This document shows, piece after piece, positions 11,467-16,081 of a stretch of 64,000 nt of DNA; position 1 is the first letter of the stretch, and every line of letters starts with the position of its first letter. The notes below the pieces were generated by a model, which was not told where the DNA came from, ran no database searches, and saw only the letters and a program-made list of their open reading frames with translations. The position numbers and the translations under genes were made by a program. The DNA is from Escherichia coli (GTDB taxonomy: Bacteria > Pseudomonadota > Gammaproteobacteria > Enterobacterales > Enterobacteriaceae). The DNA is taken from assembly GCF_003334405.1 (NCBI RefSeq), contig NZ_QOWM01000001.1; one strand, written 5' to 3'.

Positions 11467-12669
11467 TTACAGCACCAGTGCTGCGATTGACGCAGACAGC
11501 ACACTCACCAGGGTAGAGCCGTAAACCAGCTTCAGACCGAAGCGAGAAACCACGTTACCTTGCTCTTCATTCAGGCCTTTAACTGCACCTGCGATAATCC
11601 CGATTGAAGAGAAGTTAGCGAAGGAAACCAGGAACACAGAGATGATGCCTTCAGCACGCGGAGAGAGCGTGGAAGCAATTTTCTGCAGATCCATCATCGC
11701 AACGAACTCGTTGGAAACCAGTTTGGTCGCCATGATACTGCCCACTTGCAGTGCTTCACTGGAAGGAACACCCATCACCCATGCAATCGGATAGAAGATG
11801 TAGCCCAGGATGCCCTGGAAGGAGATGCTGTAGCCAAACCAGCCAGTAACGGTGGCAAACAGTGCGTTCAGCGCGGCGATCAGGGCGATAAAGCCAATCA
11901 GCATCGCGGCAACGATAATGGCAACTTTGAAACCTGCCAGAATGTATTCACCCAGCATTTCGAAGAAGCTCTGACCTTCGTGCAGGTTGGACATCTGGAT
12001 GTTTTCTTCACTGGCATCAACACGGTAAGGATTGATCAGCGACAGCACGATAAAGGTGCTGAACATGTTCAGTACCAGCGCAGCAACGACGTATTTCGGT
12101 TCCAGCATGGTCATGTATGCACCAACGATGGACATCGACACGGTGGACATTGCCGTGGCAGCCATGGTGTACATACGATTACGGGAGATTTTGCCGAGGA
12201 TATCTTTATAGGCAATAAAGTTTTCAGACTGACCCAGAATCAGGGAGCTGACGGCGTTAAAGGATTCCAGTTTGCCCATGCCGTTGACTTTGGAGAGCAG
12301 GAAACCAATTGCGCGGATGATCACCGGCAACACGCGAATGTGCTGGAGAATACCGATCAGTGCAGAGATAAAGACGATTGGGCACAGCACTTTCAGGAAG
12401 AAGAATGCCAGGCCTTGATCATTCATGCTACCAAAGACGAAGTTAGTCCCTTCGTTGGCAAATCCGAGCAGTTTTTCGAACATTTCGGAGAAGCCTTTCA
12501 CGAAGCCTAAACCAACGTCGGAGTTCAGGAAGAACCACGCCAGTAACACTTCGATAACAAGCAGTTGAATAACATAACGGATACGAATTTTTTTGCGGTC
12601 GCTGCTTACCAGCAGTGCGAGAATCGCAACAACGGCAAGTGCCAGTACAAAATGAAGGACGCGGTCCAT
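11467..12669 (-). CDS. nupC: Nucleoside:H+ symporter (CNT family)
   Basis: ORF track starts at 12708; internal start at [14 protein letters not shown] gives 400 aa; polytopic membrane protein. Confidence 0.93.
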
Positions 12670-12995
12670 ATTTGCTCCAAATATGAGGCAGGTTAAATTT
12701 CCGTGCACATTCTATGTAACATGGTTAAGGAAAACGAGATCTGACACACACTATAATGACGTCCTGTGACAGGCTTCAAAAATAGTGATCTGTCATACAT
12801 TTCTGCTATGTTGTGTATGGAAGCTGAAAGTTATGTAAATGTGCTAACATTAAACATAACCATAACATTCAAGTCATCAATCTTTTCGTAGTCATAATCC
12901 TGGTCTATCAGAGAAATCACCACAATCCATTTAAATGAATTTGATAATCATTCTCGTTTGGTATAGCATGAAACATAGCAAAGGCTATGTTTTAG

Positions 12996-14243
<1,248 letters not shown>

Positions 14244-14248
14244 TTGAA

Positions 14249-14359
<111 letters not shown>

Positions 14360-14383
14360 ATTGTGCTCCATTGGCGGACGCGT

Positions 14384-14710
14384 TTAATGGCGGTGCCCAT
14401 GACCCCGGCCTTTTCCGCGATGATCGTCACGATCGCGCCAGCCTTCACGATAGCCACGCTCATACGCTTTACGCTTATCCCAGCCACGGTGGTAGCCATT
14501 ATCATGACGCCACCAACGGTTTTTGCGCCACTCATAATTGCGATGCCAGTAGTCACGGTCGCGCCAGTGACCACCGTCCCAGTAATTACCGTAATGATCG
14601 CGATCGCCAATTTGTAATTTGATTGATGGCAGTAGGGTGATTTCACCTGCGTTTGCTGCAAGCGGGGTAAATGCCATCAGGGCGGCCGCCAGAAACAGTG
14701 ACCTGAACAT
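14384..14710 (-). CDS. ypeC: Secreted small protein YpeC (DUF2502), W/R/H/D-rich with His-rich C-terminus
   Basis: 108 aa; signal peptide [21 protein letters not shown]; repeated W-R-D-R/H units ending [10 protein letters not shown]. Confidence 0.85.
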
Positions 14711-14824
14711 TGTTATTCTCCTTCACGCTCGAAGCCGTCAGCGGCCTGTTAACGCAATATTACGGGGAGGTAAAGCCCCGTATCATCGCCATAACTCTTA
14801 AATCATAAAGGAGAGCATTTTTTG

Positions 14825-16081
14825 CTAAACGTTATCGTGGGGTGGCTGTTGCTTCGGACGATTGACCATCATCATCGGCTTACCTGCTAATAACAGCCAT
14901 GCCGGAAGCATGACGATACAGAGCAGCGGTAGCAATGTGGTATTGGGTACAACGACTGCCGCCATAAAAAGACTTAACCAGCCATCGCGTGTTACCACCA
15001 GCACGATGCCGAGAATAGCGCAAGAAACGGTTATTGCCGCTGGTACGGCGGGAACGTGCTCATGCAGCATCAACCCTAATGCCACGCCGACAAACACTGC
15101 CGGGAAGATTCGCCCACCGCGAAAGCCACTGGCGGCAGCAACGACCAGGGCGGCAAGTTTAATTACCGCCAGCAAAAAGTAATCGCTGGTGCTGAAAGCC
15201 TGATTTGCCACCATCTGCTGCATCTCATCCAGCCCTTTAAACAGCGAAACTGGTCCACCAATAACCCCCAGAATACCGAGAATAAATCCGCCAATACCCA
15301 GCACGAGCACCGGATTTTTCATTTGATGCATCATCGCGTGCAACCGTGGTAAGCACCATACGGCGACCATCCCTGCTGCGATGGCAATCGCCGCGACAAT
15401 TGCACCGCTGAGAATATCGGTCATTTCCATCTGTCCGTAATGAGCAATGGGCAGTGAAAAATGAGGATGGAAAAATAATCCGGTAGTAAGTGCACCAGCT
15501 GCTGCCGCCATTAACGGCGCAAAGAGACGATCCCATAGCGGAACTTCACTACTGCCATTTAAGGTTTGCGAAAATATCAACGCCGCCGCAACAGGAGTGC
15601 CAAACAGTGCGCCGATGGTTCCGGCAGAGGCTAAAATAGTCCACTCCATTCGGTTGACGCGCGGTAACAGACGAGCGCCAATGGCAACCGCAAGGGCGAT
15701 ATTGACGGTCATGATCGGATGTTCCGGCCCCAGGCTGACGCCGCCAGCAAGACCGAGAATTAATGCTACGATAAGTCCAGGTAGCGCAGAGGGCGGAACC
15801 GGTGCGCCGATCAGCGGTTCACAGGCGGGGTCTGGTCCGGCATGACCCTGGCTGAAACGGATAACCAACCCCACCGCAATACCCGTTAGCGTTAATACAC
15901 CGATGATCCAGAGGGGTGAATCCTGGGCTATCCCCAGAGTTCCCGGCAGTCGTTGCCAGAGCAAATTCTGTAATACCGAGGCGATTTTCATCACCACAAT
16001 CAGAATAAGACTGGACGCAATCCCAATTGCCACGGCGGGGAGCGATAATAACAACATGGTTCTGGCTCGCGGATGGAGCAT
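14825..16081 (-). CDS. yfeO: Putative ClC-like ion channel/transporter
   Basis: 418 aa polytopic membrane ORF; synteny next to glk. Confidence 0.82.

Follow-up and report, generated by a model that had tools for sequence, protein, structure and literature searches.

A conserved Trp/Arg/Asp-rich module and a His-rich tail in YpeC, a stress-regulated and probably periplasmic DUF2502 protein of Escherichia coli

The periplasmic His-rich metal binders of bacteria are among the described proteins with which YpeC can be compared, the product of ypeC (b2390) in the 64,000-nucleotide stretch of Escherichia coli chromosomal DNA that was analysed here (contig NZ_QOWM01000001.1 of assembly GCF_003334405.1; hereafter the window). 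ZinT (with its N-terminal HGHHSH), ZnuA (with its His-rich loop), SilE/PcoE, ZraP and RcnB are, like YpeC, exported with a short, His-rich and probably disordered segment, and SilE/PcoE also resemble it as largely disordered, stress-induced periplasmic proteins. Judged by its sequence, YpeC resembles these binders in combining export with a clustered His segment, but it has no sequence or fold homology to the known metal-binding families, and whereas those binders are under Zur, CusR or ZraR, YpeC is under Rcs and Mar/Sox. OsmB, Bdm, Ivy, YpfG, YcfJ and Spy are likewise small, very strongly co-induced by the same stresses as YpeC and mostly of unknown or protective function, but their sequences are unrelated to that of YpeC, and OsmB is a lipoprotein whereas YpeC is soluble with an orphan predicted fold. 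The likeness to tryptophan-zipper hairpins and WW-type mini-domains is limited to one predicted element, in which W61 and W66 of YpeC face each other across strands; comparison with WW domains gave no WW match in Pfam and no structural match. The gene, its stress regulation and the DUF2502 family have all been described before. The present analysis adds the anatomy of the protein as module plus tail, with what looks like a degenerate second module; the family-wide occurrence of the His-rich tail; the orphan status of the predicted fold; and an explanation both for the shadow open reading frames (ORFs) and for the frameshift chimeras that databases contain.

The ypeC gene is the ORF at 14384-14710 on the minus strand, which runs from an ATG start to a TAA stop and encodes 108 aa. 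The ORF list of the window and the RefSeq annotation, which labels this interval "DUF2502 domain-containing protein YpeC", agree on the extent and length proposed in an earlier account made from the letters alone (the sequence-only reading). The Pfam family DUF2502 (PF10697) matches YpeC with E = 1e-23 and a score of 83.8, residues 23-106 aligning with positions 1-90 of the 90 in the hidden Markov model; this full-length match and the presence of both a signal peptide and the YWDGGxWRD...W core place the protein in the family. Searches of NCBIfam and PADLOC with YpeC gave zero matches. From 80 orthologous loci in Enterobacteriaceae genomes 77 coding sequences were extracted, and the ortholog counts below refer to this set. 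Entropy at the three codon positions of the ypeC frame is 0.28/0.22/0.96, and the median ratio of non-synonymous to synonymous substitution rates (dN/dS), computed for each ortholog against E. coli, is 0.06 at a dS of 1.44. The signal peptide has a dN/dS of 0.10, residues 23-66 have 0.07 and residues 67-96 have 0.05, whereas the tail reaches 0.145. ypeC is a real gene that is under strong purifying selection in its own frame.

The gene is also a fixture of the species. Of 5426 complete E. coli genomes, 5425 carry its coding sequence, as a single copy and at 95-100% identity, and a 701-nt stretch around it matches all 5426, over at least 80% of its length in 5342 of them and with many matches 100% identical. 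Two database contigs carry the locus under unexpected labels: one of 398 nt, labelled Rhizobium wenxiniae, holds a ypeC that is 100% identical to that of E. coli, and one labelled Chryseobacterium holds a ypeC locus of Enterobacteriaceae type. Both are probably cases of assembly contamination.

YpeC is probably exported to the periplasm by a Sec-type signal peptide. Residues 1-21 have the layout of n-, h- and c-regions, with MFR followed by a hydrophobic stretch and then TPLAANA before GE, and 75 of 76 orthologs have the AxA site directly before G-EITL; on this layout and this conservation, the signal peptide that had been proposed from the letters appears to be genuine. Cleavage is expected in the region A-N-A/G. 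Cys is found in the mature part of 0 of the 77 orthologs, and none of them has a lipobox, in which the Cys at the cleavage site would be invariant. Since the mature part lacks Cys there is no lipobox, and YpeC is not a lipoprotein.

The mature protein (86 aa) is of unusual composition, with 18.6% Arg, 14% Gly, 11.6% Asp, 10.5% His, 9.3% Trp and 8.1% Tyr, an isoelectric point of about 10, a grand average of hydropathy (GRAVY) of -2.14 and a net charge of +7. Its first half is a highly conserved module. Residues 23-66 are nearly invariant among 17 genera, and 21 residues of the core are invariant across the clades of YpeC and of its E. coli paralog YaaX (17-21 over three alignments). The repeating unit of the family, a module of about 24 residues with the consensus IGDRDxRGxYWDGxxWRDxxWW, was recovered from distant members; among 40 intact-looking representatives it is single in 29 and tandem in 11. 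Within YpeC itself the Trp residues are spaced about 6 residues apart (W44, 49, 55, 61, 66/67), WRDRD occurs twice with an offset of 42, and the best off-diagonal self-alignment scores 80, against 45.5 +/- 9.9 for shuffled sequences, of which 1 in 300 reaches 80. Residues 82-96 look like a second, degenerate module, which would explain this internal repeat signal. The sequence-only reading had described a low-complexity body of repeated units: the repeats are real, if imperfect, but "low-complexity" undersells a segment that is nearly invariant across two paralog clades.

A module of about 48 residues is predicted to fold. Two independent AlphaFold2 (AF2) runs gave identical secondary structure, with predicted local distance difference test (pLDDT) scores for the core of 77-84 in one run and 79-90 in the other; residues 31-71 score about 80-90 and residues 72-108 below 50. 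The models contain a hairpin of Y59-R62 and R65-R68 with a two-residue turn of N/G/D type and a cross-strand pair of W61 and W66, both of which are invariant. A search of PDB structures with the predicted YpeC models returned no fold match, so that the predicted module is an orphan among them.

The second half of YpeC, a polyampholyte tail of about 38 residues beginning at residue 71, is predicted to be disordered, and it ends in a segment with 4 His among the last 6 residues. Ortholog tails continue after WxDRDD for 8-23 residues of G, H and R, nearly all with 3-9 His (two exceptions have 1 His) and with (GH)n runs in which n varies from 0 to 6. The tails of intact YpeC-clade proteins hold 16.8% His, 22.5% Gly, 19.7% Arg and 10.6% Asp, with a median net charge of +5, and in 95% of these proteins three or more of the last 10 residues are His. 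YaaX-clade tails hold 27.8% His and 18.0% Asp and have a net charge of about 0, and those of distant DUF2502 proteins have a median of 21% His, with at least 10% His in 26 of 30. The His-rich C-terminus that had been noticed in this one protein is therefore a property of the family. The tail is the fastest-evolving part of YpeC, and its length and sequence drift while its composition is kept; nothing else in the sequences argues as strongly for selection on the His-rich tail of DUF2502 proteins, as we infer. The UniProt entry of one Pantoea DUF2502 protein carries the name "Zinc ABC transporter substrate-binding protein", for which its His-rich stretch is the probable reason.

The family is small. 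When 1.84 billion representative proteins were searched with a profile, DUF2502 turned up in 101 clusters only, all of which carry the core module, single or in tandem; a homolog search with a profile of the core only returned mostly fragments. DUF2502 is almost confined to Enterobacterales, and a passage in PMC7917084 gives the same range for the Rcs system. The paralog YaaX (b0005) shares with YpeC the signal peptide with its AxA site, a His-rich disordered tail, regulation by Rcs and a tail-to-tail arrangement with a gene of the OxyR regulon (yaaA), and the two cores are 62% identical over residues 2-66. It differs in that its tail is rich in Pro/His/Lys or His/Asp, whereas that of YpeC is rich in Gly/Arg/His; in having no degenerate second module; in that no marbox has been reported for it; and in its chromosomal slot, thrC-yaaX-yaaA. 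The position of yaaX between thrC and yaaA is shared by eight genera.

According to the literature, ypeC transcription depends strongly on the Rcs envelope-stress phosphorelay. An O157 isolate in which rcsB is disrupted expresses ypeC at a level 23.7-fold lower (PMC5343319), and after inhibition of LolCDE its expression is up 42-60-fold, together with the Rcs regulon (PMC5105897). In the same vein, yaaX belongs to the RcsB regulon, and the Serratia DUF2502 gene SMDB11_2817 is RcsB-dependent, its promoter having been used as a reporter. MarA binds the site gcattttttgctaaa upstream of ypeC, both in chromatin immunoprecipitation sequencing (ChIP-seq) and, at 0.3 uM, in vitro (PMC5684230), and SoxS binds the same target in Salmonella (PMC10268841) and in ChIP-exo of E. 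coli; no evidence that MarA or SoxS activates ypeC transcription was found. Further, the two recipient species tested share 13 homologous genes in their response to RP4 conjugation, ypeC among them; rapid acidification raises ypeC expression modestly; and the expression of a DUF2502 gene had risen by 5.4 log2 when cells had spent 4 weeks in cold soil. A brief mention of Hagiwara et al. 2003 in PMC2731931 links the Rcs regulon to zinc. The role in envelope stress suggested by the sequence-only reading thus gains support from the dependence on rcsB, the induction by LolCDE inhibition and the binding of MarA and SoxS; that reading had named a lack of stress-responsive expression as grounds for abandoning its proposal, and such expression is already on record.

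The upstream region contains several conserved elements (Table 1). The upstream gene differs outside Escherichia, yet the marbox, the TTTAAGAGTTATGGCGATGA block, a GC-rich hairpin and GTAATAT are all conserved. The marbox lies about 105-120 bp upstream of the ypeC start codon, in backward orientation relative to the gene; it is centred at about -71 from the inferred transcription start site (TSS) and overlaps the stop codon of yfeO (14825-14827). It is the sole regulator consensus above chance upstream of ypeC: the sequence at 14812-14830 has 12 of 14 matches to AYnGCACnnWnnRYYAAAY, which 1% of random 261-nt windows equal. It is conserved in Enterobacteriaceae and unrecognisable in more distant lineages. 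The TTTAAGAGTTATGGCGATGA block, with a TAAGA half-site at the right distance, is a candidate activator site, possibly for RcsB. A scan with sigma-70 and terminator consensus sequences found no ypeC promoter and only an irrelevant hairpin within yfeO, as is expected for an activator-dependent promoter, and the sequence CGTAATCT, similar to the candidate -10 of ypeC, is found upstream of yaaX. Scans for Fur, MntR, Zur, CpxR, BaeR, PhoP, BasR, ZraR and RcsAB consensus sites upstream of ypeC all remained at chance level. Since there is no canonical RcsAB box, Rcs control may be indirect or may act through a non-canonical site. A shared RcsB-type motif was sought in the ypeC and yaaX promoters and was dropped, as the two have only a loose TTA(A)GAG...GGAT similarity.

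Two potential secondary structures accompany these elements. The GC-rich hairpin, CGGGGCTTTACCTCCCCG, at 14763-14780 on the minus strand, stands directly 5' of the presumed -10 and is conserved across genera; it might serve as a promoter spacer or an operator, or be what is left of the terminator of the upstream gene. A short GC stem-loop lies 10-15 nt before the Shine-Dalgarno sequence both in ypeC (GGCCGctgaCGGC, about 14727-14742 on the minus strand) and in yaaX (GGCCCataaCGGGC). The predicted fold of the ypeC 5' untranslated region is no more stable than that of shuffled sequences (z = -0.5).

Table 1. Features of the ypeC locus, with positions in the window
Feature	Position	Strand	Basis or remark
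ypeC coding sequence	14384..14710	-	ORF, RefSeq, Pfam, dN/dS; TAA at 14384-14386
Sec-type signal peptide, residues 1-21, predicted cleavage after A-N-A	14648..14710	-	reading of n/h/c regions and ortholog conservation
Trp/Arg/Asp-rich DUF2502 core module, residues 23-70	14501..14644	-	invariant residues, family module, AF2
Predicted disordered R/D/G/H-rich tail, residues 71-108	14387..14500	-	pLDDT <50 in both AF2 models
C-terminal Gly/His tail, residues 99-108	14387..14416	-	G/H tails of orthologs
Shine-Dalgarno AAGGAG, 7 nt 5' of ATG	14718..14723	-	read in the sequence; kept in ortholog upstream alignment
Candidate -10 TAATAT, no good -35	14757..14762	-	inferred promoter, TSS near 14750; GTAATAT kept in 76 orthologs
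Conserved block TTTAAGAGTTATGGCGATGA	14783..14802	-	about -33 to -52 from inferred TSS; kept across genera
Marbox GCATTTTTTGCTAAA (MarA/SoxS/Rob site)	14815..14829	+	same as published MarA ChIP-seq and Salmonella SoxS sites
Shadow ORF, 119 aa, +1 frame of ypeC, extends into repetitive extragenic palindromic (REP) element	14302..14661	-	open in 75/77 orthologs
Two antisense shadow ORFs (14363-14617, 14371-14622)	14363..14622	+	wobble pattern and composition
Two REP palindromes (bacterial interspersed mosaic element) between mntH and ypeC 3' ends	14272..14359	.	inverted repeats 14272-14301, 14328-14359

The reading that we favour, tentatively and at somewhat less than even confidence, is that YpeC is made under stress and works in the periplasm, its His/Asp tail binding divalent metals and its Trp module docking to a ligand in the envelope. 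Damage to the outer membrane, to lipoprotein traffic or to peptidoglycan, or chemical stress of the Mar/Sox type, would fill the periplasm with YpeC; the His/Asp-rich tail would reversibly chelate Zn2+, Ni2+, Cu2+ or Mn2+ as a buffer or sponge; and the folded aromatic/Arg module would hold the protein on an envelope ligand, be it a glycan, an anionic polymer or a partner protein. There would be no transcriptional coupling between ypeC and mntH. His and Asp are standard ligands for Zn, Mn, Ni and Cu, and from the make-up of the tail its binding of metal is plausible. Several observations weigh against this proposal. The best matches to metal-sensor boxes upstream of ypeC are at chance (Fur 12/19, MntR 13/22, Zur 14/23), and the best match to the RcsAB consensus TAAGAATATTCCTA there is 9/14, which 54% of random windows reach. 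The microbiology papers mentioning ypeC that were examined from a full-text search report no metal response and assign it no function. The AF2 model of the core is of moderate confidence only. Tails rich in His might, alternatively, provide a charge that depends on pH or bind polymers, and ten distant DUF2502 proteins end in CPPGQAKKG[RN]C instead of a His tail, a subclass from which it follows that the tail is dispensable to the module. The CPPGQAKKG[RN]C motif is probably a disulfide loop; the genomic context of these proteins differs (DUF1684, FliL), and they apparently lie outside Enterobacterales.

The same protein might act on envelope polymers with no metal role at all, a possibility that we regard as unlikely but deserving of real weight. 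YpeC would then bind peptidoglycan strands, the lipopolysaccharide inner core, osmoregulated glucans or colanic-acid precursors and stabilise or shield them during damage of the kind sensed by Rcs, and the His tail would only tune charge with external pH. Mature YpeC, with its 18.6% Arg, 17% Trp plus Tyr, net charge of +7 and tails of median charge +5, has a suitable make-up: surfaces of Trp, Tyr, Arg and Asp are characteristic of sites that bind sugars, and anionic membranes are bound by peptides rich in R and W. Co-induction of ypeC with colanic-acid genes and other envelope proteins and its mild induction on an acid shift point the same way. YaaX-clade tails, with a net charge of about 0 and 18% Asp, are however a poor fit for a simple polyanion binder, and YpeC has neither a Pfam match to carbohydrate-binding or cell-wall-binding repeats nor a fold match. 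Improbable, in our estimate, is a disordered shield of the hydrophilin or chaperone type, comparable to late embryogenesis abundant proteins, hydrophilins or Spy, that would protect periplasmic or membrane proteins non-specifically under osmotic, desiccation or envelope stress. Hydrophilins are reportedly defined (by Garay-Arroyo et al. 2000) by Gly above 6% and high hydrophilicity. With 14% Gly and a GRAVY of -2.14 YpeC falls within that compositional definition, which says little on mechanism; its charged fraction of 0.40 puts it on the disordered side of the charge-hydropathy plot, half of it is predicted to be disordered, and ypeC is co-induced with spy, yjbJ and osmB, among others, to which the rise of a DUF2502 gene in cold soil may be added. 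Yet the N-terminal module, with 21 invariant residues and a dN/dS of 0.07, is too conserved for a purely compositional function, and YpeC has no similarity to Spy, CpxP or ZraP.

The extreme conservation of W, R and D residues of surface type suggests a specific interface, and it has to be asked whether the module docks on a particular periplasmic or membrane protein, such as MntH, RcsF or IgaA, and modulates it. The adjacency of ypeC and mntH, which holds across different 50%-identity clusters, and the likewise tail-to-tail arrangement of yaaX and yaaA would agree with such a partner; but the first lies within the block gpr-ypeC-mntH-nupC, may be plain synteny and is interrupted in some Citrobacter, and YaaA is cytoplasmic. 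We hold this explanation to be very improbable. The suspicion that ypeC is an annotation artefact, the real gene being another overlapping ORF or the region being non-coding, draws on the three long alternative ORFs that overlap it. All three are present as listed in the sequence-only reading, at 14302-14661 (-), 14363-14617 (+) and 14371-14622 (+), and in 72-76 of the 77 orthologs these alternative frames likewise run without a stop through no less than 70% of the gene. This openness is explained by composition alone, because CGN, GAY, CAY, TGG, GGN and TAY codons give no stops in those frames. Third-position wobble fits the ypeC frame only, which argues that the overlapping ORFs are not genes; together with the dN/dS of 0.06, which also fits that frame alone, it refutes the artefact, and the Pfam family, the signal peptide and the Shine-Dalgarno sequence all belong to the same frame. 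The chance that ypeC is an artefact is negligible. The three overlapping ORFs are composition shadows, not genes: the sequence-only reading was right in calling them false, as entropy, dN/dS and frame openness in orthologs confirm.

The same property of the sequence accounts for a class of database entries. Of 182 DUF2502 protein clusters, 56 (about 30%) are frameshift or read-through chimeras of 113-187 aa, for example ending in ...QWSTMPDATLARLIRPTNRLFNA. The chimeric ypeC entries run into the shadow frames and the REP element, the clusters concerned are small, and complete genomes have the intact gene. A single-base insertion or deletion in ypeC meets no stop soon, and chimeric proteins of 113-187 aa result. 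The notion that these long "YpeC" proteins are longer isoforms was rejected, their sequences being frameshift and read-through chimeras. They inflate the apparent diversity of the family and are likely to be assembly errors or rare pseudogenes.

The neighbourhood of the gene bears on the metal hypothesis less than had been supposed. The local order is nupC (-), mntH 13005-14243 (+), ypeC (-), yfeO 14825-16081 (-) and glk (+), so that the convergent neighbour mntH, whose position the sequence-only reading had used, with the composition, to suggest periplasmic metal binding or a role in envelope stress, is indeed there. The promoters of the tail-to-tail pair stand at its opposite ends and none is shared. 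The ypeC-mntH arrangement is kept in most of the 80 loci, and three distant lineages, with DUF2502 proteins from different 50%-identity clusters, also have it, in the order gpr, DUF2502, then Nramp and nupC. The adjacency is always found within the longer conserved block gpr-ypeC-mntH-nupC and for that reason may be plain synteny. In some Citrobacter, genes for a ribokinase-like protein and a sugar ABC (ATP-binding cassette) substrate-binding protein are inserted 3' of ypeC and separate it from mntH. Tail-to-tail orientation, opposite promoters, the age of the block and its interruption in Citrobacter make the argument from position a weak one. The genes mntH (Mn import) and yaaA (shrinking of the iron pool) both appear in Imlay's table of OxyR-induced genes, and ypeC and yaaX are thus each tail-to-tail with a metal-pool gene of the OxyR regulon; this observation, made post hoc, may be coincidence, plain synteny or a functional hint.

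Some further observations concern the DNA around the gene. Matches to the REP-derived Rfam family naRNA4 across 14251-14410 are sub-threshold, at 48.7-50.9 bits against a gathering score of 59.5. RefSeq annotates a 29-aa ORF, ypeD, that overlaps the start of mntH at about 12935-13024. The mechanically called nupC ORF, 11467-12708 on the minus strand, begins with GTG at 12708 and encodes 413 aa; the RefSeq protein has 400 aa and starts 39 nt downstream.

A wider proposal can be framed, to which we give only a slim chance: that DUF2502 proteins form a class of periplasmic metal buffers not described before, whose orphan fold resembles a Trp zipper, and act with the adjacent metal-homeostasis genes that OxyR controls. 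If this were true, stress sensed through Rcs and Mar/Sox would adjust which metal reaches the cytoplasm, and at MntH, for example, YpeC might either enrich Mn2+ or Zn2+ or keep it back. In the two published Rcs-related data sets examined, ypeC is among the strongest-induced genes. Knowledge of the ligand of YpeC, whether a metal, a glycan or a partner, would fill a gap in the picture of how enterobacteria repair and protect their envelope, and envelope repair bears on the tolerance of polymyxins, beta-lactams and inhibitors of lipoprotein transport.

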